From an uncultured Prevotellaceae bacterium (GTDB lineage Bacteria; Bacteroidota; Bacteroidia; Bacteroidales; Bacteroidaceae): a DNA stretch of 64,000 bases. The notes below the pieces were generated by a model, which worked only from the letters and a program-made list of their open reading frames with translations, searched no databases and was not told the origin of the DNA. Below are positions 1 to 12,726 of the stretch, in pieces (positions within the stretch are counted from its first letter, which is position 1; each line of letters opens with the position of its first letter). Location of the stretch: the NCBI GenBank assembly GCA_900318585.1, contig ONKY01000033.1, positions 1,801-65,800 of the forward strand, read 5' to 3'. Made by a program: the position numbers and the translations under genes.

Positions 1-40
1 CGGTGGACTTGAGTATATCAATGATCTTTGTACGTTTCAT
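1..40 (-). CDS. asnS: Asparagine--tRNA ligase, 5' end only (runs off window)
   Basis: Minus strand reads MKRTKIIDILKST, resembling the Bacteroidales AsnS N-terminus; purB-rluB-asnS order fits. Only 13 codons visible. Confidence 0.6.
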   Translation of the reverse strand, partial: MKRTKIIDILKST

Positions 41-74
41 TTTTCTATATGATTTTGAAGTGAAAGGGCGGAGC

Positions 75-98
75 CCCGGCGGGAAAACCGCCGGGCAC
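75..98 (-). repeat. REP-like hairpin family A, intergenic copy (GTGC-CCGGCGG-TTTTC-CCGCCGG)
   Basis: Perfect 8-bp stem 75-82/88-95 just 3' of rluB; related copies at 1605, 2656, 5989, 6421, 7731, 11153. Confidence 0.85.
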
Positions 99-108
99 TG
101 ACGAGCGA

Positions 109-1554
109 TTACTCGTAAGCACCCATGCGGAGGCGATCGACCTCTTCCTCGGTGAGGTAGCGCCAGTCACCACGGCGGAGGTTTTTCTTCGTGAGTCCGG
201 CGAACTGCACGCGGTCAAGCTTGGTAACGCGGTATCCGAGGGACTCGAAGATGCGGCGTACGATGCGGTTCTTGCCCGAGTGGATCTCGATGCCCACCTG
301 CTTTTTATCGTTGGGGTCGCTATACTGCACGTCGTCGGCATGGATCTCACCGTCCTCCAGTTGTATGCCCTCAGCGATCTGCTGCAGGTCATGGGCCGTA
401 ACGTTCTTATCGAGGTAGACGTGGTAAATCTTCTTCTTGAGATACTTGGGATGAGTGAGTTTCGATGCGAGGTCACCATCGTTTGTCAACAGGAGCACGC
501 CCGTCGTGTTGCGGTCGAGGCGTCCAACGGGATAGATGCGCTCCGGGCAAGCGTTCTTGACAAGATCCATGACCGTCTTGCGCTGCTGCGGGTCGTCGGA
601 AGTGGTGACATAGTCCTTAGGCTTGTTGAGCAGGACATATACCTTTTTCTCCAGCGATACGGTATCCTCGTGGAACTTCACCACGTCGGTGCGCATTACC
701 TTGGTGCCCAATTCAGTGACCACCTCCCCGTTAACGGAGACCACACCAGCAAGAATGAACTCGTCGGCCTCGCGGCGGCTGCATACGCCGGCATTGGCAA
801 GGTACTTGTTCAGACGGATGGGCTCGTTAGGATCATAGTTGACCTCCTTGTACTCAATACGCTTCTTCATGGAATACTTGGCATTGGGATCGTAATCGGC
901 GGTGCGCTGACGCTTGGGGCCGTAGGGTTTCTTGTTGTATGAGCCGACGGGGCTGTATGCGTTGGGCTGACCGTAGGGTCTGCGCTGCTGGCCATAGCCG
1001 CCACGAGGCTGATAGCCGCCCTGCTGCTGGCCGTAGCCGCCACGAGGCTGATGGCCACCCTGCTGGCGGGGCTGATAGCCGCCACGGGGTTGATAGCCAC
1101 TATGCTGCTGGTCGTCGTCGGAGCCTGCACCGTAAGGTTTCTTGGTGTATGGCTTGGCGTAGTTCGAATTGGCATTGTAGCTGGGGCGCTGCTGGCCGTA
1201 GCCGCCACGAGGCTGATAGCCACCCGGCTGGCGAGTCTGGTATCCCCCACCCTGCTGGCCATAAGTGTTACGAGGCCTGTAGGTACGCTGCTGGGGAACA
1301 GCAGACTGCAGCCCGGCACCAAATCCTTCAGGACGGAAGCCGCCCTCGTCATCGTTCTGAGGCTTGTTGTAGGCAGGACGCTCAGCAAAGGGGCGCTGCT
1401 GTCCTGTGTGGATGCGGGGACGCGGGGAGCGCCCGGGCCTGAATTCACGCTGAAAACCGCCTGCAGCACTCTGTGACGCCTGGTAGCCCTCACGGTTGCC
1501 AGTAGTCTGCTCTACAGACATCTCTTCTTTCTTGTTGTCGTTCTCGAAATCCAT
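109..1554 (-). CDS. rluB: 23S rRNA pseudouridine synthase (RluB/RsuA family) with long Q/G/Y/R-rich N-terminal extension
   Basis: S4 domain IRLNKYLANAGVCSRREAD, LNKPKDY, catalytic VGRLDRNTTG, SGKNRIVRR. Confidence 0.9.
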   Translation of the reverse strand: MDFENDNKKEEMSVEQTTGNREGYQASQSAAGGFQREFRPGRSPRPRIHTGQQRPFAERPAYNKPQNDDEGGFRPEGFGAGLQSAVPQQRTYRPRNTYGQQGGGYQTRQPGGYQPRGGYGQQRPSYNANSNYAKPYTKKPYGAGSDDDQQHSGYQPRGGYQPRQQGGHQPRGGYGQQQGGYQPRGGYGQQRRPYGQPNAYSPVGSYNKKPYGPKRQRTADYDPNAKYSMKKRIEYKEVNYDPNEPIRLNKYLANAGVCSRREADEFILAGVVSVNGEVVTELGTKVMRTDVVKFHEDTVSLEKKVYVLLNKPKDYVTTSDDPQQRKTVMDLVKNACPERIYPVGRLDRNTTGVLLLTNDGDLASKLTHPKYLKKKIYHVYLDKNVTAHDLQQIAEGIQLEDGEIHADDVQYSDPNDKKQVGIEIHSGKNRIVRRIFESLGYRVTKLDRVQFAGLTKKNLRRGDWRYLTEEEVDRLRMGAYE

Positions 1555-1604
1555 ATTCTTATAATTTTAATTGTTGAGTCTATATGTTAAGGGGCCGGGG
1601 AATA

Positions 1605-1627
1605 CTGGCGGGCAAACCGCCGGACAC
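1605..1627 (-). repeat. REP-like hairpin family A, intergenic copy
   Basis: Plus strand ctggcgggcaaaccgccggacac, immediately 3' of the purB stop. Confidence 0.85.
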
Positions 1628-1631
1628 ATGC

Positions 1632-3044
1632 CTACATGCCGGTATAGGTGGCCGGCGTGATGGCACGCAGTTCCTCCTTGACGGCATCATTGACGTTGAG
1701 TGTGTCAATGAAGCCGGCTATGCGCTCCGGAGTCATGCGCTCATTGGTGCGCGTGAGCGCTTTGAGCGTCTCGTAGGGGTTGGGGTAGCCCTCTCTGCGG
1801 AGGATAGTCTGTATGCCCTCGGCGACGACCGCCCAGGTATTCTCCAAATCCTCGCGCAGCTTCTCCTCGTTGAGAATGAGCTTGCGCAGTCCCTTGAGAG
1901 TGCTGTGGAAAGCGATGAGGGCGTGGCCCATGGGCACGCCGATGTTGCGCAGAACAGTGCTGTCGGTGAGGTCGCGCTGCAGACGGCTGACAGGCAGTTT
2001 CTGTGCAAGGAAGGCGAGGATGGCATTGGCAATGCCAAGATTGCCCTCGGAGTTCTCGTAGTCGATGGGGTTCACCTTGTGGGGCATGGCACTGGAGCCC
2101 ACCTCTCCTGCCTTGATTTTCTGCTTGAAGTAGTCCATGGAGATATACATCCAGAAATCGCGGTCGAGGTCGATGACGATGGTATGGATACGGCGCATGG
2201 CATCACAGATGGCGGCCAGCCAGTCGTAGTTAGAGATCTGGGTGGTGTACTGCTCGCGCTCCAAGCCGAGCTTCTCGGCAACGAAGCGGTCGCCGAAGTC
2301 GCGCCAGTCGTACTGGGGATAGGCCACGTGGTGTGCGTTGTAGTTGCCGGTGGCACCGCCGAACTTAGCGGTGACGGGGGTATCGCGGAGGGCCCGCAAC
2401 TGCTCCTCGAGACGATAAACATAGACCATCACCTCCTTGCCGAGACGGGTGGGCGATGCGGGCTGGCCGTGGGTCTTGGCGAGCATGGGGATGTTCTTCC
2501 ACTGCTCAGCGTAGTCATGAAGCTGCTCGATGAGCTCTTCGAGGAGGGGGATGTAGACGTCGTGGAGCGCCTCCTTTAAGGAGAGGGGCACGGAGGTGTT
2601 GTTAATATCCTGAGAGGTGAGGCCAAAGTGGATAAACTCCTTGAAAGCAGCGGCTCCGGCGGGCAAACCGCCGGCCACGGACAAGGGAGCCGAGGCGGAC
2701 GGAACAGCGGGCACGGACGAAGCGAGCAAGGCATCGAAGCGCTCCTTGATGAAATATTCGACAGCCTTGACATCATGATTGGTGACGGCCTCAATGTCCT
2801 TCACACGCTGCGCGTCGGCAGGGGTGAAAGTGCGGTAAATGTCACGGAGGGGCTCGAATAGGGAATGGTCGAAATCCTGAAGCTGGGGGAGAGGAAGCTC
2901 GCACAGGGCAATGAAATACTCTATTTCCACACGAACACGGTAACGTATCAGCGCATATTCGGAGAAGTATTCGGCCAACGGCTCGGTCTTTCCTCTGTAA
3001 CGTCCATCAATAGGCGAGATGGCGGTTAATAAGCTTAAATCCAT
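1632..3044 (-). CDS. purB: Adenylosuccinate lyase
   Basis: TAISPIDGRY, TNHDVKAVEY, HFGLTSQD, THGQPA, GSSAMPHKVNPIDYEN signature. Confidence 0.97.
   Translation of the reverse strand: MDLSLLTAISPIDGRYRGKTEPLAEYFSEYALIRYRVRVEIEYFIALCELPLPQLQDFDHSLFEPLRDIYRTFTPADAQRVKDIEAVTNHDVKAVEYFIKERFDALLASSVPAVPSASAPLSVAGGLPAGAAAFKEFIHFGLTSQDINNTSVPLSLKEALHDVYIPLLEELIEQLHDYAEQWKNIPMLAKTHGQPASPTRLGKEVMVYVYRLEEQLRALRDTPVTAKFGGATGNYNAHHVAYPQYDWRDFGDRFVAEKLGLEREQYTTQISNYDWLAAICDAMRRIHTIVIDLDRDFWMYISMDYFKQKIKAGEVGSSAMPHKVNPIDYENSEGNLGIANAILAFLAQKLPVSRLQRDLTDSTVLRNIGVPMGHALIAFHSTLKGLRKLILNEEKLREDLENTWAVVAEGIQTILRREGYPNPYETLKALTRTNERMTPERIAGFIDTLNVNDAVKEELRAITPATYTGM
2656..2678 (-). repeat. REP-like hairpin family A inside purB (codes VAGGLPAG)
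   Basis: GTGG-CCGGCGG-TTTGC-CCGCCGG in frame within a low-complexity insert before KEFIHFGLTSQD. Confidence 0.85.
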
Positions 3045-3218
3045 TTCTTTGTTAATTAAACAGGCGGTATACGAATGGTTACTAAAAAATGGTATATATA
3101 TAGAATTCTAAATATAATATAACAGATATGACGAGTATTTACTTCTTATGAATGATACTTTGTTCCTATACTTAAATCCGCAACCGATGGGGCTGCGGAC
3201 TGAATTGTTTCGTGTTTG

Positions 3219-3293
3219 TGGGCGCTGACGGATTCGAACCGCCGACCCTCTGCTTGTAAGGCAGATGCTCTAAACCAGCTGAGCTAAGCGCCC
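3219..3293 (-). tRNA. tRNA-Val (TAC)
   Basis: Reverse complement GGGCGCTTAGCTCAGCTGG...CTGCC-TTACAA-GCAG...GGTTCGAATCC...GCGCCCA folds as a cloverleaf; anticodon TAC. Confidence 0.97.
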
Positions 3294-3322
3294 TTATGCT
3301 TCCTTTTTCCTGTAAGCGGGTG

Positions 3323-3354
3323 CAAAGGTACGGACTTTTTTTGAAACGACCAAA
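3323..3354 (-). promoter_or_regulatory. Bacteroidota sigma-A promoter for tRNA-Val
   Basis: -7 TACCTTTG (3330-3323) and -33 TTTG (3354-3351). Confidence 0.75.
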
Positions 3355-3446
3355 TTTTTCCGAAACTTTTTTGAGGCGACAGGGTCACTTGTACGTGTTA
3401 GATGTCAAATCAGCTGTTTTTAAGAGGCGGTTTGGGGCGATATGTG

Positions 3447-3790
3447 TTCTACGCGCGCGCATAATATTATAGCTTAATCTGAAAAAACCCCACACTTCCT
3501 ACACTTCCCACACCTAAGCGGGTGTAAGATGTGTAGGAAGTGTGGGATTTTTTCGGGTTTGGCTACATAATACGCGCGCGTATGTGAGAAGGCAAACGGA
3601 CAAATTGTTTGATAATGGCATTGGCAAATCAAGGAAAGAGCAGAAAAAGAAAGAGTTTATGGTTTGGATTTGTCCCAGCGGGTGGGACAAATCCAAACCA
3701 TAGGTTTACGATTCCAAACCACCGATTTACGATTCTAAACCACCGATTTACGATTCTAAACCACTGGTTTACGACGCCAAACCACCGAGC
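3447..3790. repeat. Composite palindromic element, copy 1 (nested inverted-repeat core + conserved 20-mer + hairpin + 21-bp tandem array)
   Basis: 34-bp arms at 3481-3514/3521-3554; aaacggacaaattgtttgat at 3594-3613; 20-bp stem 3658-3702; 21-mers starting 3695, 3716, 3737, 3758, 3779. Same layout at 41785-42223. Confidence 0.85.
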
Positions 3791-3826
3791 TTGGGGGGGG
3801 GAAACGCCAGCGGTCAGTTCAGAGGC

Positions 3827-4252
3827 TTAGAGCTGATAGAGGTCGTTGGCGGCCAGCAGCTCCACCTTCTTCTCGGCGAGCGCCTTCTCACAGGCCTCCA
3901 GGTCGGAGGGACGTATGACGACGTGAGCAACGTTACCGTTGGCGAAGGAGTACATATACTCGATGAAGATGCCGCGCTCAGAGAGATGGCGCAGCACAAC
4001 GGCCAGCGAGCCGCTGACGTTGGGGCAGACGAAACCGATGACGTCGGTGAGCTTCACGGCGAAGTGGGCCTCTTTCAGCACCTGATAGGCGCGGTCGGGG
4101 TCGGACACGATGCAACGGAGGATGCCGAAGTCGGAATTATCGGCAATACTCATGGCAGACAGGTTGATGCCGGCGGCACCCAGTACGTCGGTCACCTCGG
4201 TGAGGCGGCCGGACTTGTTCTCGAGGAAAACGGATAATTGTTTTGCTAGCAT
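3827..4252 (-). CDS. ACT-domain protein (tandem ACT)
   Basis: MLAKQLSVFLENKSGRL...INLSAMSIAD...IEYMYSF; usual partner of paaK. Start placed at ATG 4252. Confidence 0.9.
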   Translation of the reverse strand: MLAKQLSVFLENKSGRLTEVTDVLGAAGINLSAMSIADNSDFGILRCIVSDPDRAYQVLKEAHFAVKLTDVIGFVCPNVSGSLAVVLRHLSERGIFIEYMYSFANGNVAHVVIRPSDLEACEKALAEKKVELLAANDLYQL

Positions 4253-4260
4253 ATTGATCA

Positions 4261-4338
4261 GGTTTTTAGGCTGCGACAGAGTCGCAGCAAACAGGAAATA
4301 TTTACTGGTTTTTAGACTGCGACAGGGCCGCAGCATAC
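4261..4338. repeat. Pair of REP-like hairpins, family B
   Basis: ggtttttaggctgcgacagagtcgcagcaaac (4261-4292) and ggtttttagactgcgacagggccgcagcatac (4307-4338). Confidence 0.75.
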
Positions 4339-4346
4339 GATAATTA

Positions 4347-5645
4347 TTACAATTTACGGTTGTCTATGACGCGGCGGGCCTTGCCCTCGGAGCGCTCAAT
4401 ACCCTTCGGCTCAACGAGACGAATCTTGAAGCCGAGGCCGATGACAGAGCGGAGCTCGCCTTCGAGCTTCTTCTGGAGGCCAACCATGGTGGACATGTCG
4501 TCGGTGAAATACTCCTCCTTGACCTCAACCTTGAGCTCGCTGGTGTCGGTATTGTTGACACGGTCGACGATGAGCAGGAAGTGAGGCTCGAACTCCTTCT
4601 GTTTGAGGATGACATCCTCGATCTGCGAGGGGAATACGTTGACGCCACGGATGATGAGCATATCATCGCAACGGCCGAGGATACGGTCCATACGAACGAG
4701 TGTACGACCGCAGGCGCACTTGTCGTAGTGCAGGGCGGTGAGATCGTGGGTACGATAGCGCAACAGCGGCATACCTTCCTTTGTGAGGTGAGTAAAGGTG
4801 AGCTCGCCAAAGGTGCCCTCGGGAAGGGACTCGCCCGTCTCGGGGTTGAGAATCTCCGGGTAGAAGTAGTCCTCGTTAAGGTGAGTGCCCTTTTGACACT
4901 CGCACTCGTAGCCTACGCCAGGACCGGCAATCTCGGAGAGTCCGTAGATGTCGTATGCCTTGATGCCCAGCGACTCTTCGAGCTTCACACGCATCTTCTC
5001 CGTCCACGGCTCAGCGCCGAAGGCACCAATCTTCAGTTTGAACTCCTCGCGCGGCCAGGGGCACTCGCTGAGGGCTTCGCCGAGGAACATGGCGTAGGAA
5101 GGTGTGCAACAGAGCACGGAGGCGCCGAAATCATGCATCAGCGTTATCTGTTTCTGCGTGTTGCCAGAGGACATGGGGATGACGGAGGCGCCGATGTTCG
5201 TGGCACCGTCGTGGGCGCCGAGGCCGCCGGTAAACAGGCCGTAGCCGTAGGACACCTGGAAGATGTCATCCTTCGTGGCACCATAGGCGGTAAAGGCACG
5301 GGAGATAGACTCCGTCCACATGGCAATGTCCTTGCGCGTATGCAGAACGACGACAGGCTTACCCGTCGTGCCGGAAGAGGCGTGGATACGTACAATCTGC
5401 GACATGGGCACGGCGGCAAGGCCGAAGGGATAGTTGTCGCGGAGGTCTAGTTTGTTTGTGAACGGGAGCTTGACAATGTCGTCAATACTCTTGATGTCGC
5501 CCGGCTCCAAGCCCATCTCCTGGAATTTCTTGCGGTAGAAGGGGGTATTGTGGTAGACATACTCTGCCATCTTGACGAGACGGCGACTTTGGATCTCACG
5601 AAGCTGTTCGCGATCCATGCATTCAATACTTGGGTTCCAAATCAT
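4347..5645 (-). CDS. paaK: Phenylacetate--CoA ligase
   Basis: RIHASSGTTGKP, YGLFTGG, DIYGLSE, RYRTHD, GRCDDMLIIRGVNVFPSQIE. Confidence 0.93.
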   Translation of the reverse strand: MIWNPSIECMDREQLREIQSRRLVKMAEYVYHNTPFYRKKFQEMGLEPGDIKSIDDIVKLPFTNKLDLRDNYPFGLAAVPMSQIVRIHASSGTTGKPVVVLHTRKDIAMWTESISRAFTAYGATKDDIFQVSYGYGLFTGGLGAHDGATNIGASVIPMSSGNTQKQITLMHDFGASVLCCTPSYAMFLGEALSECPWPREEFKLKIGAFGAEPWTEKMRVKLEESLGIKAYDIYGLSEIAGPGVGYECECQKGTHLNEDYFYPEILNPETGESLPEGTFGELTFTHLTKEGMPLLRYRTHDLTALHYDKCACGRTLVRMDRILGRCDDMLIIRGVNVFPSQIEDVILKQKEFEPHFLLIVDRVNNTDTSELKVEVKEEYFTDDMSTMVGLQKKLEGELRSVIGLGFKIRLVEPKGIERSEGKARRVIDNRKL

Positions 5646-5679
5646 AGGTTTTCATCTGTTGGTTTAAGTAAATGCGCCG

Positions 5680-5687
5680 CAAAGGTA
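5680..5687 (-). promoter_or_regulatory. -7 promoter element for paaK-ACT
   Basis: TACCTTTG on minus strand about 35 nt upstream of paaK. Confidence 0.65.
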
Positions 5688-5732
5688 GGCATTTTTTCCG
5701 AAACAGACAAGAAAAACGGGAATTATTTCTGA

Positions 5733-7700
5733 CTATGAGAAAAGACGGTCGATAGATGACTGTGGGAGGATGGAGAGGATGAGATGGCCGTCGGGAGTAT
5801 GGTTAACGTCGGAACAGGCAAAGAGCTGGTTGACCAGCGCCTCCATCTCCTCGTTGGAAAGAACCTGACCGTATGGGATGGCGGCAGAAGTGGCGAGACT
5901 GAGGGCGAGGGTGCGGTGGAGGAGGGACGTAGCGGCAATGCCAACACCTGCGGAGAAGGAGGGAGAAGAGGTGGAAGGGACGGAGATGTCGGCAGGCAAA
6001 CTGCCAGCCACGGACAAAGGGGCGTCGCTATCAACAGCATCAGAGACCATGCGACGGAGAAGGGAGATAGGGTCAAGGCCCTCAATGCCTGCCGGTACAC
6101 CGCCCACGGAGAAGGAACCACCACCGAGGTCGCTGAGATCGAAGCCCATAGCGGTAAGGTCAGGAAGGATACGCTCCATGATGACGGTTTCTGAAGGGGA
6201 GAACTGAAGGATGTCAGGGAAAAGCAGCTTCTGTGTATTGGCGGTATGGGTGCGAAGCTGTTCCAAGTAACGCTCGTAGAGGATGCGGACGTCTGCACGG
6301 TGCTGGTCGATGAGCATGAGGCCGGATTTGACGGCCGTCATGATGTAGCGGCCCTTGTATTGGTAATGGAGGGGAGATTTCTCTTCAGGACAAGGAAGGA
6401 CAGCGGGCGACACGGTAGTTCCGGCGGGAAAACCGCCGGACACGAACGACGAGGAATCGCTAGACGAAGGTGCGGAAGCATCGCCAGACGGTGGCGGGGA
6501 GGCGGGGGTATCGCCGGACACTATGCCCAGACCGTCATAGAGAGCCTGCCAGTCGGCAGGAACGCGGGGCTTGGCGGATGCAGGTGAATCCTGAAGGAAG
6601 GGGTTGTAGGATTCATTATACTGGATGCGAGGAGCCTCGGCAAAAGCGTGTGAAGAGTCGTAGACAGGGATGTCCGGACGTCCTTCAGTATCGAAATCGA
6701 TGGACGGGATCTCGGAGAACCGGCCAATGGCGTCGCGGATGGCGGCTGTGAGGATCTGCCAGATGGCCTGTTCATTCTCGAACTTAATCTCCGTCTTGGT
6801 GGGATGGATATTGACGTCGATGTCTGCAGGGGACACATCGAAATAGACAAGATAAGACACCTGCTCGCCCTCAGGCACCAGGCGTTCATAGGCCGAGAGA
6901 ACGGCCTTGTGGAAATAGGGATGGCGCATGAAACGGCCATTGACGAAGAAAAACTGCCGTGGGTTCTTCTTACGGGCCGACTCAGGCTTGCCGACAAAGC
7001 CGCTGACACGGCAAAGCGCAGTATCAACGGACAAGGGCAGCATTTCTTGGGAGAACGTATGTCCAAAAACGTCGGCTACACGCTGGCGCAGGGAGCCGGG
7101 GCGGAGATTCAGCAGCTCGGCCCCGTTATGATGAAGGGTAAAATGGATATCGGGATATACCAATACGATGCGCTCGAAGGTGAGGAGGATATTGTTAAGT
7201 TCCGTCGAGTTAGATTTCAAGAATTTCCTGCGGGCGGGCACATTGTAGAACAGATTGTCAACGCGGAAGTTACAGCCTACAGGGCAGGAAGCAGGCTCCT
7301 GCGAAACCACACGGGAGGCTGCAAGGCGCAGACGGGTGCCAAACTCGTCGCCAGCAGTGCGGGTGAGCAATTCCACCTGCGAGACAGCGGCAATGGAAGG
7401 AAGGGCCTCGCCACGGAAGCCCATCGTGTGAAGGGCAAAGAGGTCGTCGGCCTGACGGATCTTGGAGGTGGCGTGGCGCTCAAAGGCGAGGCGGGCATCG
7501 GTCTCTGACATGCCCTGGCCATCGTCGATGACCTGAATGGAGGTGCGGCCTGCATCCACAATCAGTACGCCAATGCGGTGGGAACCAGCATCGACAGCAT
7601 TCTCTACCAGTTCCTTGATGACAGACGCGGGACGCTGGATTACTTCGCCTGCGGCTATCTGATTGGCGACGGAATCAGGAAGTAGCTGGATGAGGTCCAT
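5733..7700 (-). CDS. mutL: DNA mismatch repair endonuclease MutL
   Basis: NQIAAGEVIQRPASVIKELVEN, GFRGEAL, DVNIHPTK, IDQHRADVRILYE. Confidence 0.97.
   Translation of the reverse strand: MDLIQLLPDSVANQIAAGEVIQRPASVIKELVENAVDAGSHRIGVLIVDAGRTSIQVIDDGQGMSETDARLAFERHATSKIRQADDLFALHTMGFRGEALPSIAAVSQVELLTRTAGDEFGTRLRLAASRVVSQEPASCPVGCNFRVDNLFYNVPARRKFLKSNSTELNNILLTFERIVLVYPDIHFTLHHNGAELLNLRPGSLRQRVADVFGHTFSQEMLPLSVDTALCRVSGFVGKPESARKKNPRQFFFVNGRFMRHPYFHKAVLSAYERLVPEGEQVSYLVYFDVSPADIDVNIHPTKTEIKFENEQAIWQILTAAIRDAIGRFSEIPSIDFDTEGRPDIPVYDSSHAFAEAPRIQYNESYNPFLQDSPASAKPRVPADWQALYDGLGIVSGDTPASPPPSGDASAPSSSDSSSFVSGGFPAGTTVSPAVLPCPEEKSPLHYQYKGRYIMTAVKSGLMLIDQHRADVRILYERYLEQLRTHTANTQKLLFPDILQFSPSETVIMERILPDLTAMGFDLSDLGGGSFSVGGVPAGIEGLDPISLLRRMVSDAVDSDAPLSVAGSLPADISVPSTSSPSFSAGVGIAATSLLHRTLALSLATSAAIPYGQVLSNEEMEALVNQLFACSDVNHTPDGHLILSILPQSSIDRLFS
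5989..6017 (-). repeat. REP-like hairpin family A inside mutL C-terminal domain (LSVAGSLPAD)
   Basis: Minus strand ttgtccGTGG-CTGGCAG-TTTGC-CTGCCGA; shares its 5' flank with the purB copy. Confidence 0.75.
6421..6450 (-). repeat. REP-like hairpin family A inside mutL linker (FVSGGFPAG)
   Basis: Perfect GTGT-CCGGCGG-TTTTC-CCGCCGG. Confidence 0.85.
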
Positions 7701-9670
7701 GAGTGGGGAATAATAGACAATGCGGAGGTGTCGGTGCGAAAATCACCGGACACGAACGACAGGGAAAAATCGTAGGAAAGAGGAGCGCCGAGAGACTCAA
7801 AGGCAGAAGAATCCTCTGCTGGAACGGTGAGCTCCTCAGCAGGAACGACAGGATCTTCAGCTGGAACAGTGGGATCCTCAGAAGGTAGGGAGGAATCCTC
7901 TGCTGGGACAACGGGTTCCTCAGCAGAGACAGCGGGACTCTCTTTGGAAGGATCTATTGGGGCTGCGGAGGGATCGTCGACAGCGGGGGCATCATCGGGA
8001 GTCCCACTAGGAGCAGTGGAAGCGGGAGGCAGGTCAAGCTGCTGAACGGGAGCGGCACGGCGAGCGACAGGCTTGAGGGCAGCAGAGGCAGCCTTGGGGC
8101 GCCAGTTAAAGATATCATCCTTATCAAGGGGGCGGATGTAGTCAAACCAAGCATAGCCCTCTAAGTGTTTTTTATCAGGAGGAATCTGAGTGAGAGGGTA
8201 CATTGTTCCCTCTGCTGCCGGCATCCAGATACGACTCATCTTACGGTTCTCCATGAACATCCGAAGTTCTGTGGTCTCTGTATAGTTCATGGCGATATAC
8301 GACGAGTCAGCATCATCCTCGGGGTAAAAGATGACACGCACATTATCTATTGCACGCGTCTCGCGAATCTCACCGTCATCAAAGAAGGCAAACATCTCCT
8401 TAGATGACACCTGATTCTGATACATAGTATCTCGCAGTTGCTCAATGGTAAAAGCCTGATTAATCACATGCGCCCGATTTATAACAGAATCCTTCATAAA
8501 CATCTGTATCTCCTCACCCAAGAGTTGTTGGTTCATGTTCCACACGATGGGATCATGGTACATCGTCATACAGGAGTCGAGCTGGTTATAGACAAGGGAA
8601 TCGCATACCGCCTGCAAGTCGACTCGATAAGCCCGCACTTTATTGTAGGCATGAACTTTCCTATAAACGGAATCGGTGTCAATATTGTAAGTAAAAATTT
8701 TGAACGTATCAGCATGCATATAAAGCGTGTCGCGCTGAGAGAAGTCTATGGACACAGCCCGTTGCGTACACATGGCATAGCCCGTACTCTCCTCATACTC
8801 CCCGTAATCACAAAGAAGACGATTTTTGTTGATGGAATCGGTAAAAATTACATTTCTGAATGCTTTGCTCACCCCATTCTTACCCCCATAATAGACGCTG
8901 TCGCCAACCATCATTTTCCCTTCATTCCGCAAAACAGAGCGATCCATCAGGCGCGCCTTTTCGGTCTTTGTATCGTAGTATCCACGTTCTGAATAAATTT
9001 TACTTTTTCCAGAGGTAATATTGGTCGGACCGACAATGTGAGCCACAGACTGACGTGTATCATAATAGAGGGTATCAGAGGTCAGGTAGTAGTCCTCGCC
9101 ACGCATCTTCACGTCGTAATTAAAGACAGCCATTTTCGTCTCCGTATTATACTCTCCCCAGTCGGAGGTCAGCGTGGTGGACTGATCGACAAGCTTTCCG
9201 CCCTCAAAAAAATACGCATTGTTATAGAGGCGGTCAAAGTTGAGGGAGTCCGTATATAGCGTTGTCTTGCGATTTTTTAACACCACATTGTAGCGCGCCT
9301 GAGCCATCTGGTCATCTCCATCATAGTAGGCATAGTCACTAACGAGGGAGAGCGTGTCGCCCTGGTACATACGGACATGGCCGAAAGCCTCGAAGGAATT
9401 AGAAGCTTCGTAGAAATGGGCGCTATCACAGAAGAGCTTAGCCCCTTGATGCATGAATTGCACCTTACCGTTAAGAATCTGTGCGTCGCGGTTCATGTAC
9501 TGGTTATAGTGAAGCACGTCGGCATGGACAAGATAGATGCGTTTGTCCTTGGCAGCTGTCGACTTTGCAGAAGTTCGACGCGGCCGAGGCTTACGATTGG
9601 CAGCATCGACCAGAGGGCTGGTACATAGTGCCAGCAGACAGAACAACAAAAGATAAACCGTCTTCTTCAC
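7655..9670 (-). CDS. OstA/LptA-like periplasmic beta-jellyroll protein with acidic low-complexity C-tail
   Basis: Signal peptide, repeated LFCDSA/LTSDTL/AVCDSL beta motifs; conserved surA-ostA-mutL order; GTG start. Confidence 0.8.
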   Translation of the reverse strand: MKKTVYLLLFCLLALCTSPLVDAANRKPRPRRTSAKSTAAKDKRIYLVHADVLHYNQYMNRDAQILNGKVQFMHQGAKLFCDSAHFYEASNSFEAFGHVRMYQGDTLSLVSDYAYYDGDDQMAQARYNVVLKNRKTTLYTDSLNFDRLYNNAYFFEGGKLVDQSTTLTSDWGEYNTETKMAVFNYDVKMRGEDYYLTSDTLYYDTRQSVAHIVGPTNITSGKSKIYSERGYYDTKTEKARLMDRSVLRNEGKMMVGDSVYYGGKNGVSKAFRNVIFTDSINKNRLLCDYGEYEESTGYAMCTQRAVSIDFSQRDTLYMHADTFKIFTYNIDTDSVYRKVHAYNKVRAYRVDLQAVCDSLVYNQLDSCMTMYHDPIVWNMNQQLLGEEIQMFMKDSVINRAHVINQAFTIEQLRDTMYQNQVSSKEMFAFFDDGEIRETRAIDNVRVIFYPEDDADSSYIAMNYTETTELRMFMENRKMSRIWMPAAEGTMYPLTQIPPDKKHLEGYAWFDYIRPLDKDDIFNWRPKAASAALKPVARRAAPVQQLDLPPASTAPSGTPDDAPAVDDPSAAPIDPSKESPAVSAEEPVVPAEDSSLPSEDPTVPAEDPVVPAEELTVPAEDSSAFESLGAPLSYDFSLSFVSGDFRTDTSALSIIPHSWTSSSYFLIPSPIR
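7731..7760 (-). repeat. REP-like hairpin family A inside OstA-like tail (FVSGDFRTD)
   Basis: gtcgttcGTGT-CCGGTGA-TTTTC-GCACCGA; same gtcgttc flank as the 6421 copy. Confidence 0.7.
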
Positions 9671-9714
9671 CTCTTTACCATTTTTCCTTTTCTGCGTATT
9701 ACCTTTTCACCTGA

Positions 9715-11241
9715 TCACCGCACCCAGCCATCGTACTCATAATGACAGTCGCGGTATTCGGGATTGATGCGTACATAGGTTGCCTTAATCTTATCGACGA
9801 CCCACTGGTGGATGAAATCCTCGCGGCGCTTGCCGAGCACCATATCCTTCAGTACCTGAAAATCCTCTGTAACGGTGGCGCGGTGCCCATCGACACGACT
9901 CTTCAGACGGACGATGGCACAGACTGTCTTGCCACTCTCGTTGATCATCTGGAACGGGGCAGATACCTGACCCACAGTGAGGGTATCCACCATACGAGCC
10001 ACCTCGGCGGGCAGTTCCTGAAGGCGGAATTTCGACGTATTCTTGCCTAACTGCATATTGACGTTGGCCATGAGGCCGTGGTTGCTGCGTGTCTTCTTGT
10101 CGTCGGAGACCAAGGAAACCGCATCCTCAAAGGTGAAATGGTCGGGCACAGTGATGAGCTGTTTGCGAATCTTCTCGGGCACGCGGTCGGCGCGAATATC
10201 TGCTGCCAAAGAGTCCAACCGTCCTAAAGCTACCATAACGGCAGAGTCACTGACTTCCGGTTTTAGGAGAATATGGCGGGCGTTGACCTTGTCGCCACGC
10301 TTGTCGATGAGCTGGATAATATGGTAGCCGTATTCTGTTTCCACAATCTTAGACACCTTCTTCGGGTCAGTCAGATTGAAAGCAACGTTGGCAAACTCAG
10401 GCACCCATCCGGCACGTCCCGTATATCCCAACTCACCGCCATTGCGGGCAGAGCCATCCTGAGAATAGAGGCGGGCTAACGTAGCGAAAGAGGCGTCACC
10501 ACTGTTGATACGGTCGGTGAATTCACGCAGGCGCTCCTTGATGCGGTTGATCTCTGCATCGTCGATACGGGGTGTCAGGGTGATAATCTGAACTTCATAC
10601 TCGGTAGGCACGAAAGGAATACTGTCCTCGGGAAGGTCAGCGAAATAGCGGCGCACCTCAGCGGGTGTCACCTTGATATCCTGCACAAGTTTCTGCTGCA
10701 TCTTCTGGACGAGCATACGGTCGCGCATGTCATCGTGGAGCTCTGCGCGGAGTTGGGTAATGGACTCCTTCTTGTACTCCTCGAGCTTCTCACGGGAGCC
10801 AATCATGTCTACCCAGCGGCTAATCTGATCCTCAACGCCGGCAGAGATGTCGGCCTCAGTCACATCCTTGTCTATACTGTCGATGACCGCCTGATGAAGG
10901 AACAGCTTCTGGACGGCAATCTGCTCCGGGATGGCACAGTCAGGGTCGCCATTGAAGCGGATGCCCTCGGCGGCAGCCTGCATACGCATCTGCTCTACAT
11001 CGGACTTGAGAATCGGTTCGTCTCCAATGACCCAGATAACCTCATCTACGATGGAAGCCTTGTTGAGGGAGACTGCGAGGGAGCTATCAGCAGCGACAGA
11101 GTCGCTGCCTGGGGCAAATACGATGTGAGAGGGTGAAGCAGGCACGGCAGCTCCAGCGGACAAACTGCCGAACACAGACGCTAAGGGAAGAAGAGCAACG
11201 AGTAAGAGAGGAATTATATTCTTTCGCATCATTTCTATCAA
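9715..11241 (-). CDS. SurA-like parvulin peptidyl-prolyl isomerase
   Basis: Signal peptide, IVDEVIWVIGDEPILKSD, FATLARLYSQDGSARNGGELG, ETEYGYHII. Confidence 0.9.
   Translation of the reverse strand: MIEMMRKNIIPLLLVALLPLASVFGSLSAGAAVPASPSHIVFAPGSDSVAADSSLAVSLNKASIVDEVIWVIGDEPILKSDVEQMRMQAAAEGIRFNGDPDCAIPEQIAVQKLFLHQAVIDSIDKDVTEADISAGVEDQISRWVDMIGSREKLEEYKKESITQLRAELHDDMRDRMLVQKMQQKLVQDIKVTPAEVRRYFADLPEDSIPFVPTEYEVQIITLTPRIDDAEINRIKERLREFTDRINSGDASFATLARLYSQDGSARNGGELGYTGRAGWVPEFANVAFNLTDPKKVSKIVETEYGYHIIQLIDKRGDKVNARHILLKPEVSDSAVMVALGRLDSLAADIRADRVPEKIRKQLITVPDHFTFEDAVSLVSDDKKTRSNHGLMANVNMQLGKNTSKFRLQELPAEVARMVDTLTVGQVSAPFQMINESGKTVCAIVRLKSRVDGHRATVTEDFQVLKDMVLGKRREDFIHQWVVDKIKATYVRINPEYRDCHYEYDGWVR
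11153..11175 (-). repeat. Degenerate family A copy in SurA-like N-terminus (VFGSLSAG)
   Basis: GTGT-TCGGCAG-TTTGT-CCGCTGG; four transitions from consensus. Confidence 0.55.
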
Positions 11242-11289
11242 TTGATGGTGAATAACGGTAATCTGGCTATTGACAGTACTGATTTCTGA

Positions 11290-12726
11290 TTATTGATGAT
11301 TATTGACGGTTTTCAGAACATCCGTATTGACGGAGAAGGAGAACTTACGACGAAGGGCGGCCACCCACTCACGCTCCAGCTGCTCCTGATAGTCGGCAAC
11401 AACAAGGCCACGCACGTCGGTATAGTCCTCCGGTCCTTTCTTCAACACCTTTCCATAGACAGCATCAATGGGGTAACCCTCTAAGGAGGTGAAGGTAGTA
11501 TCCTTCTTGAACACTTCGCGATCAATCAGCGCATTATCCCCGCGCTTAAAGATACCTTTCTCCACACGAATACGAATGACAGAGTCAGGATTGAACGTGG
11601 AGCGGAGCACCTCCGGCCATTTGTCGAAAGGCACTTTCTTGATGCTATTCTTGACAGCTTTGACATCTGCCTTATCCTTGACGTGATAGGCAATACCTTT
11701 ATAGCGGGGTTCGTTCCACGCGTACTTCTTTTTGTTCTGACCGAAATAGTTAGCAAGCCCTGCCTCATCCTTTGCGGCACGCTCCCAGACTTCAAGGTTG
11801 CTCACTTCATAGAGGAGCAGCCCCTCGTAGTATTCACGTATCAGGTTCTTCAGCTCATCATCCTTTTCAGAGAACTCTCCAGCCTTCTCCTCCAGGATAT
11901 CGGCGCGAGAGGAACCTGCTGCGGCAGCCAGCGAATCAGCCTTTTGAGTGGCGATATAGTCGCGGAGGCCACGCTGCTCAATAAACTTCAGTATGCTTTC
12001 GCGGTGGTACTCATACGGTTCCAGTTCCTTGCGCCCCTTCATCAGAATGATATGATAGCCATAGGGCGACTGGACGACACCAGACATCTCACCATCTTTC
12101 AGGGCAAAAGCCACATCCTCGAACTCTTTAACCAACTGTCCACGCTGTACGAAAGGCAGCAGTCCGCCCTGAGCAGCAGAGCCCGGATCCTGTGATACCT
12201 TTTTGGCCAACTCGGCAAAGTCTGCACCGCCCTTCAATGCAGTATAGATGGAGTCAATGCGTACCTTGGCAGCCGTCTGTTGCTCAGGCGTGGCCTTCTG
12301 GTCAAGACGCAGGAGGATATGAGCCACTTGAATCAGTCCGTCGGAGCCTATACGATCCTTCGTCTGCTGATAGATATGACGGGCCTCAGCCTCCACGTCT
12401 TCATCATTTACCATGAGGGGAAGCACCTGTTGGTCACGGTACTGTGCAAACTCCTGCTTGAAAGACGTGAGTGTGTCAAGGTGACGGTAAAGGGCCTCGG
12501 CCACCTTGAGCTTATAGTTGATGAAGAGGTCAACGTACTCCTCCACGGTCTTCTTGTCAATGACGCCTTCGGAATTGTTCTTGTTGTAACTATACTCAAA
12601 CTCACTGCGGAGGACTTTCTGACCATTGACAGTCATGACAACAGGATCAGTTTGCGCCACTGCGTGGCTAAATATAAAATAAAAAATAAAAAATAAAGCT
12701 GCGCGTTTTCTTTCCTTATACATCAT
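11290..12726 (-). CDS. Parvulin-type peptidyl-prolyl isomerase
   Basis: VAHILL, FAELAKKVSQDPGSAAQGGLL, QSPYGYHII; signal peptide. Confidence 0.9.
   Translation of the reverse strand: MMYKERKRAALFFIFYFIFSHAVAQTDPVVMTVNGQKVLRSEFEYSYNKNNSEGVIDKKTVEEYVDLFINYKLKVAEALYRHLDTLTSFKQEFAQYRDQQVLPLMVNDEDVEAEARHIYQQTKDRIGSDGLIQVAHILLRLDQKATPEQQTAAKVRIDSIYTALKGGADFAELAKKVSQDPGSAAQGGLLPFVQRGQLVKEFEDVAFALKDGEMSGVVQSPYGYHIILMKGRKELEPYEYHRESILKFIEQRGLRDYIATQKADSLAAAAGSSRADILEEKAGEFSEKDDELKNLIREYYEGLLLYEVSNLEVWERAAKDEAGLANYFGQNKKKYAWNEPRYKGIAYHVKDKADVKAVKNSIKKVPFDKWPEVLRSTFNPDSVIRIRVEKGIFKRGDNALIDREVFKKDTTFTSLEGYPIDAVYGKVLKKGPEDYTDVRGLVVADYQEQLEREWVAALRRKFSFSVNTDVLKTVNNHQ

Follow-up and report, generated by a model that had tools for sequence, protein, structure and literature searches.

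A 24-nt REP-type hairpin family found mostly within genes, and its probable RAYT-like partner nuclease, in an uncultured Prevotellaceae bacterium

Repetitive extragenic palindromic elements (REPs) have been described inside genes, often DNA-repair genes (PMC3733652), and their presence within the genes of their own nucleases, the REP-associated tyrosine transposases (RAYTs), is likewise published. Families of GTAG/CGTC REPs lie mostly outside genes; their few intragenic inserts are in more than half of cases dimers, which encode 20–30 amino acids, and the same work mentions the Rickettsia palindromic elements (RPEs) of R. conorii as REP-like elements in frame (PMC3733652). Here we describe a family of 24-nt hairpins in the genome of an uncultured rumen Prevotellaceae bacterium (G000; 3.12 Mb, 176 contigs), seen first in a 64,000-nt stretch of contig ONKY01000033.1 (hereafter the window). 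We consider it probable that this REP-type hairpin family has as its partner a fusion protein in which a RAYT/TnpA-REP-like HUH-Y1 nuclease acting on single-stranded DNA is joined to a DprA-like domain; the hairpin appears to belong to the gene of such a nuclease, P0003, which carries the same hairpins in its coding sequence.

The family has in common with REP/RAYT systems a short GC-rich hairpin in many copies, what may be a GT(A/G)G-like foot and a HUH-Y1 nuclease of the same fold (PMC6006769; 4ER8), together with occasional copies in unrelated genes and an apparent co-variation of enzyme and hairpin (PMC6006769). It differs from them in having one short foot, GTG followed by a base that pairs, where REPs have a long or double foot, and in a unit of exactly 24 nt. 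Like the intragenic GTAG/CGTC REPs, it is translated in known proteins, often DNA-repair and tRNA-related enzymes (PMC3733652), and its hosts in G000 include MutL, PurB and two apparent aminoacyl-tRNA synthetases; here, however, most copies are single units within genes, and ~80% of the coding ones are in sense frame 0. The TnpA enzymes of IS200/IS605 (IS608, ISDra2), which recognise hairpins on single-stranded DNA, share the HUH-Y1 fold (Z about 11, root-mean-square deviation (rmsd) 2.5 Å over ~105 residues), but the gene here lacks a transposon body, TnpB and a flanking left-end/right-end pair, and the hairpins are dispersed singly. RPEs, which are about 100–150 bp long, occur in a different lineage and to our knowledge have no known partner nuclease, are likewise palindromic repeats in frame within functional proteins, yet their size is not approached by a 24-nt unit. 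The first-pass annotation of the window had spoken of a mini-RPE-like family; the resemblance is an analogy only, and REP/RAYT is the right family.

The 23-mer from which that annotation started occurs, exact or near-exact, on the minus strand at window positions 76, 1605, 2656 and 6421 (0 expected, 100 shuffles), with 7, 6, 7 and 7 Watson–Crick pairs of 7, and decayed copies at 5989, 7731 and 11153 retain 5, 5 and 4. The motif is thus real at the window sites. Its coding context is also as first described: all five intragenic copies are covered by minus-strand open reading frames (ORFs) and GTG is a valine codon in each, the minus-strand ORFs in the region encoding an RluB-like protein, PurB, MutL, an OstA-like protein and a SurA-like protein. 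Both intergenic copies lie on the sense strand just past stop codons, one 10 nt after that of the RluB-like gene (75..98, minus strand, as are all features in this paragraph; GTGC CCGGCGG TTTTC CCGCCGG G, 7/7 pairs, RNA fold −19.1 kcal/mol, z −3.0) and one 4 nt after that of purB (1604..1627, 6/7 pairs). Within purB (adenylosuccinate lyase; 1632..3044, from its ORF and PDB homologues) a perfect hairpin at 2655..2678, identified by pairing, ORF translation and RNA fold, encodes V-A-G-G-L-P-A-G. Two copies are hosted by mutL (5733..7700, from its ORF and alignment): a perfect hairpin in the disordered linker (6420..6443; V-S-G-G-F-P-A-G, 7/7 pairs, RNA fold) and a decayed one in the C-terminal domain (5988..6011; V-A-G-S-L-P-A-D, 5 Watson–Crick pairs and 1 G-U). 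The OstA-like and SurA-like genes hold the remaining coding copies. That in the OstA-like ORF is a decayed hairpin within a C-terminal extension, a short way upstream of where mutL starts (7730..7753; 5/7 pairs, closing pair broken); that in the SurA-like gene, at its N-terminal signal region, is strongly decayed (11152..11175; 4 Watson–Crick and 2 G-U pairs), and its RNA fold does not beat shuffles. The compensated inner pairs reported previously (GGCAG/CTGCC and CGGTG/CACCG) are real, although outer or closing pairs are broken in those copies, and the flank said to be common to the purB and mutL copies is borne out by a 10/12-nt match between 2656 and 5989, joint top among 2926 pairs. What does not hold is the picture of five insertions of one 23-mer: hardly any two copies have the same stem, and three of the five coding copies are decayed.

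Genome-wide, G000 contains only three exact 23-mer cores, every one inside the window; a fixed 23-mer with mismatches therefore misses the family, and a structure-based pattern was adopted, in which the stems vary in almost every copy but remain complementary. The pattern GTG-N6-GG-TTYNC-CC has 46 matches in G000 versus 4 for the reversed control, and 42 of the 46 have at least 6/7 stem pairs (chance ~1.6%); these 42 are our high-confidence copies. Since the N base pairs with base +24 in 38/42 copies, and the following position pairs in only 2/42, the unit is 24 nt and not 23: an unpaired GTG, an 8-bp stem of free sequence, a 5-nt TTYNC loop and the complementary arm, or eight codons in all. 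Among 55 well-formed hairpins in G000 (the total copy number being ~55) the foot is GTG in 41, GCG in 7 and GTA in 5, and its fourth base is G in 19/42 copies and paired in 38/42. No extended flank consensus was found beyond a weak GTYC(C) immediately before GTG, and no Rfam family matches the hairpins. A frameshift or recoding signal, a T-arm or anticodon-arm mimic, an attC site and a diversity-generating retroelement target were each considered by eye and set aside, the loop length and sequence being unfit and no stop codon or slippery site being present.

A codon-score model, for which long ORFs served as the training set, was used to place copies relative to genes. By this model 35 (83%) of the 42 high-confidence copies are coding: 28 in the sense strand in frame 0, four antisense with CAC in frame and three in other frames; the other seven are intergenic or uncertain, two of the uncertain ones sitting within the array of the enzyme gene itself. 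Roughly this share would be expected if copies fell blindly in a bacterial genome, so that the notable points are that coding DNA is not avoided and that the frame is biased. In genomes of five other species (G015, G220, G267, G300, G356 and G361) sense frame 0 likewise accounts for 15/21 coding copies. The statement that copies always use the same strand and frame thus survives as a strong bias (28/35 coding copies in G000) and not as a rule. The sense-frame peptide is a small turn, Val-x-x-Gly-Phe/Leu/Ser-Pro-x-x; when the consensus is read in six frames, the other two sense frames contain Trp/Cys or are Arg-rich, and two antisense frames look harmless, for which reason peptide tolerance could account for the frame but would leave the preferred strand unexplained. 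Among regions of strong local GC skew in this 176-contig draft, 16/23 have the foot on the C-rich strand, compared with ~53% for long ORFs.

The recurrence of this peptide raises the question of whether the motif belongs to the protein, V-x-x-G-F/L/S-P, or to chance and codon usage, with an incidental palindrome. A similar peptide is indeed found in most copies, and two examples, VNHGFPVI and VFFGSPKE, are conserved protein segments. A peptide motif, however, has no need for codons 2–3 to be the reverse complement of codons 7–8, intergenic and antisense copies exist, and the motif-poor genome G008 keeps AVEGSPVD without a hairpin at one orthologous site (C100:20819, considered below). We give this explanation a near-negligible probability and reject it on the pairing statistics above.

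A RAYT-type gene bearing the motif, which the first-pass annotation had suggested looking for, is present. Three hairpin copies cluster at the start of contig C127, within a 435-residue ORF, P0003 (C127:129-1433), with the motifs YHITLHV, MPEHLHVLI and YIKGNP. The gene has an in-frame hairpin array of 27-nt period between the HUH and Tyr motifs (C127:513-700), and a further copy at C127:1197 encodes the conserved VNHGFPVI in the DprA-like domain. In an alignment of 35 diverse family members, conservation reaches at least 90% at H84, H86, Y229 and N233. In the AlphaFold model (predicted local distance difference test score 85) disorder is confined to the array; the N-terminal domain aligns with 4ER8_A, the E. 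coli RAYT bound to REP (VIA-align Z 13.0, 137 aligned residues), with the TnpA of IS608 and ISDra2 (Z about 11) and with 2A6O (Z 11.5, rmsd 2.5 Å), with a Foldseek probability of 1.0, and residues 240-435 align with DprA (4LJK, Z 10.5; 3UQZ, Z 10.0) and ShosA (8ZVA, Z 11.9). As modelled, the N-terminal part is a predicted HUH-Y1 domain of the RAYT/TnpA-REP kind, fused to a DprA-like domain. Clustering at 50% leaves more than 1300 representatives of the P0003 family; a variable low-complexity insert stands at one place in all aligned members, and homologues carry an inverted hairpin pair at that linker position. The insertion site of TnpA-REP subclass 2.4 matches that of P0003, but the motifs are EHLH and YIKGNP here and NH[IFV]H and YIxNNP there (PMC6006769). 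No mention of a DprA-like C-terminal domain was found in the RAYT literature searched. The G267 orthologue has four copies in or adjoining the gene. The orthologues in G268, G015 and G267 each contain one in-frame stop (TGA or TAG), and may be pseudogenes or reflect an artefact of reading through the repeat array. Genes matching Pfam Y1_Tnp, of which the G000 search gave one sub-threshold match (C158), were considered as partners and rejected because they are present in motif-rich and motif-poor genomes alike and none is flanked by the motif.

The distribution of the hairpin follows that of the enzyme family. Counts of the motif do not exceed chance in 150 genomes from 35 genera of the family and are raised in some species of the genus only (10–24 matches in 12/200 other genomes). 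A member of the P0003 family is encoded in 13/13 genomes with at least 10 motif matches versus 78/201 overall, an association whose significance is overstated because the genomes are related. The loop sequence offers a stronger comparison. In G315 the linker hairpin of the enzyme has the loop TTTTG, and the pattern GT-N7-GG-TTTTG-CC was counted in six genomes besides G000. It has 33 matches in G315 and 30 in G313, where the variant is found in the linker of a paralogue encoded on C72, and stands at chance level, with 2–3 matches each, in G357, G338, G248 and G008; G000 has two matches, neither a well-formed hairpin. The variant is therefore enriched, among the six, solely in the two genomes that hold a second enzyme subfamily, and the loop variant tracks the enzyme subfamily.

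Six species, at 70–75% protein identity, were compared in detail. At C148:49554 the G000 stem is CCGGCGG and those of G267 and G015 are CCAGCGG/CCGCTGA, a compensated pair; G268 has equal length without the hairpin, and G008 and G220 are exactly 8 codons shorter. At C148:60638 G000 has CCGACGG and G267 CCAGCGG/CCGCTGG (two compensated pairs), G015 and G008 being 5 codons shorter. Four species have perfect stems of three kinds at C100:20819 (TCGATGG, TCGACGG and TTGATGG), and the peptides follow the stems (V-D...I-D, V-D...V-D and V-D...I-N), with V/I and D/N changes. At C55:9657 a pair is flipped between G000 and G268. At the site orthologous to this last one, G008 has a different small palindrome, ACCGGA-ATA-TCCGGT. 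The purB loop reads GTG A TTGGCGG TTTCC CCGCCAA in G015, with one extra codon only, and CTGAACGG-CTTCC-CCGTTCAG in a rumen contig of another species. Over 14 aligned copies, 95.9% of cells are paired and 5/7 pairs have changed on both sides, a level of pairing reached in 0/500 shuffles and not approached in slid registers (at most 55% paired). Stem pairing is thus upheld through double-sided changes, as the first-pass annotation had proposed. Its further step, to selection on the hairpin, is indistinguishable from re-copying or conversion between copies: stems and loops are common across sites within a genome (CCAGCGG at two sites in G267, the loop TTTAC at three in G000), copies of one genome resemble each other in the stem more than orthologous copies do, and re-copying or conversion consequently explains the compensation as well as site-wise selection.

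Copying may have left other signs in these genomes, namely the exact 8-codon difference at C148:49554, the leader common to two copies, and same-stem copies on one contig of another genome (G341:C258). On that contig three tandem hairpins with a 40-nt period stand just past a gene's stop codon (119-222) and four same-stem copies lie within that gene (1054-2720), the stem being CCCAGCGG throughout; this looks like a local burst.

The same observations bear on a reading in which the hairpins are selected host cis-elements, that is, mRNA or single-stranded-DNA sites for a domesticated HUH-DprA protein with roles such as repair, replication restart or mRNA stability, which arise and persist in place. 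This reading is compatible with the partnership that we favour, and we regard it as unlikely. It would account for the persistence of same-codon hairpins across the species compared, compensated even by amino-acid substitutions, and for copies in native conserved sequence with unchanged length (VFFGSPKE at C83:1420; C77:19365), and the strong sense-strand bias would fit an RNA-level role; intergenic copies directly past stop codons and the lack of copy polymorphism among strains also speak for it. Yet stems and loops are more alike within a genome than among orthologous copies (CCAGCGG in G267, CCCAGCGG on G341:C258), tandem arrays and leader-sharing copies exist, one site is filled or empty by exactly 8 codons, many copies are decaying and the distribution across the genus is patchy, all of which argues for copying rather than site-by-site selection.

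Within host proteins the copies change surface loops, as had been put forward for housekeeping genes of the window. The clearest case is PurB, which has ~22 additional residues between VEYFIKERF and KEFIHFG relative to PDB homologues and 29 relatives; its alignment to the PDB homologues breaks at residues 106-129, and the loop of the 29 relatives reads IGGLDAY, with FDKIGGLDAYKEF at this place. The insert, missing in relatives, is ~72 nt long (2655..2726, minus strand; alignments with PDB homologues and relatives) and by eye consists of two 36-nt units (12-nt leader and 24-nt hairpin), the upstream one decayed; the 12-nt leader also precedes the MutL copy at 5989 (10/12 nt identical). In MutL (both the linker and the C-terminal domain), at the C-terminus of the OstA-like protein and at the N-terminus of the SurA-like one, the copies are surrounded by G000-specific inserts rich in Ala, Ser, Pro and Val, measuring ~28 residues around the MutL copy at 5988 and ~20 around the SurA-like copy at 11152; we read these low-complexity inserts as decayed hairpin arrays. 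Loops are, however, not always added by insertion, as first claimed, in that some copies replace native sequence without change of length: C141:2549, C58:24701 and C83:1420 all show 0 residues length difference from their orthologues.

Sites of this kind invite an explanation by enzyme-independent template switching at quasi-palindromes, which would perfect imperfect inverted repeats in GC-rich codons and leave the hairpins as by-products. The left arm of the purB hairpin in G015 (ATT GGC GG) is ancestral host sequence, length changes at several sites are 0 or +1, and most copies, in both orientations, keep one codon phase, observations that speak for such a process. It leaves unexplained the constant TTYNC loop and the unpaired GTG foot (41/55), as well as the species restriction and the loop variant that tracks the enzyme subfamily, and the motif is already largely absent from genomes without the enzyme family. 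We consider this origin highly improbable.

Under the partnership of hairpin and P0003-type nuclease, the enzyme would recognise the folded hairpin on one DNA strand through its loop and unpaired GTG foot, and would cut and rejoin single-stranded DNA, thereby producing copies at other sites or renewing those already there. Newly made copies would often land close by, sometimes with a leader of ~12 nt; those in genes would add or overwrite surface loops and then decay to low-complexity inserts rich in Ala, Ser, Pro and Gly. Copies may survive inside genes because the unit is eight codons and makes a small turn in the sense frame. Catalysis, the direction of copying, the reason for the sense-strand preference and any role of the DprA-like domain are points on which we infer.

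Several observations weigh against this account. Several copies overwrite native sequence and alter protein length by 0 or +1 residue, whereas a simple 24-nt insertion predicts otherwise. No copy has been gained or lost in window positions 1-12000 among same-species strains (~99% identity) in four public rumen or bovine-gut runs, and strain differences within copies come to two single-nucleotide polymorphisms, C>T at 92 (in the stem, one strain) and 2675 (the N base). Three genomes (G338, G248 and G357) hold close P0003 orthologues but few copies of the exact pattern. Classical REPs are extragenic and exceed 100 copies, against ~55 copies, 83% in genes, here. Pfam gives no hit for P0003, a genome search with PF01797 missed it, and NCBIfam REP_Tyr_transpos (NF047646) scores 21.8 bits against a cut-off of 80. 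Finally, the gene calls come from our codon-score model rather than a gene finder.

A variant of the account that would accommodate overwriting is that the HUH-Y1-DprA enzyme frees or exposes single hairpin strands and passes them, by way of its DprA-like domain, to RecA, which would use them to convert short patches of look-alike sequence; we think this decidedly unlikely. If true, such conversion would write hairpins over native codons without length change, keep the copies within a genome alike (concerted evolution) and steadily remodel housekeeping surface loops in a fixed frame.

Other features of the window and genome were recorded alongside. In the same strain comparison, an 84-nt presence/absence difference at 7805-7890 is not a hairpin copy; it falls within 21/42-nt tandem repeats (PVVPAEDSS-like) of the OstA-like ORF, in its C-terminal extension, which is specific to G000 and overlaps the mutL start. 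A metagenome scan with PurB for near-identical relatives found the nearest at 84% identity and no same-species contigs. In the RluB-like gene (109-1554, minus strand) a 39-nt tandem repeat at 984-1111 encodes a Gly/Tyr/Gln/Arg/Pro-rich N-terminal tail that differs in length among species. G000 has other hairpin families: TATTCCA-gcctg-TGGAATA (17 copies, of which many lie at contig ends), CCCTCCC-ttgta-GGGAGGG (17), CCTCCCC/CCCCCTC-ctgta (16), GCnGCGA-ctctg-TCGCnGC (8, including two at window positions of about 4270 and about 11090) and TATTCCA-ccccg-TGGAATA (11, one near window 42116). Window 3692-3788 is a 21-nt tandem repeat of 4.6 copies (unit TCCAAACCACCGATTTACGAT), whose end ...GATTTACGAT resembles, by eye, the actggtttacgat flank of the last of these families. 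A tRNA-Val (TAC) lies at 3218-3293 on the minus strand, and the stretches around and past it (3215-3372 / 3489-3580) match dozens of places in related genomes and may be a tRNA plus a dispersed repeat.

What distinguishes this family from those already described is the eight-codon unit, the sense frame-0 bias across species and the paired changes at orthologous coding sites, along with the DprA-like fusion and the way in which loop variants correspond to enzyme subfamilies. It provides a countable case of a REP-type element that lies mainly inside genes, where the protein sequence sometimes changes while the DNA/RNA stem stays paired, and it bears on how repeats create low-complexity loops in core enzymes, on whether REPs and their RAYTs live as parasites or have been domesticated, and on the role of a DprA-like domain fused to a HUH nuclease. 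The correspondence of the TTYNC and TTTTG loops with their enzymes is a natural specificity swap that is usable in experiments.

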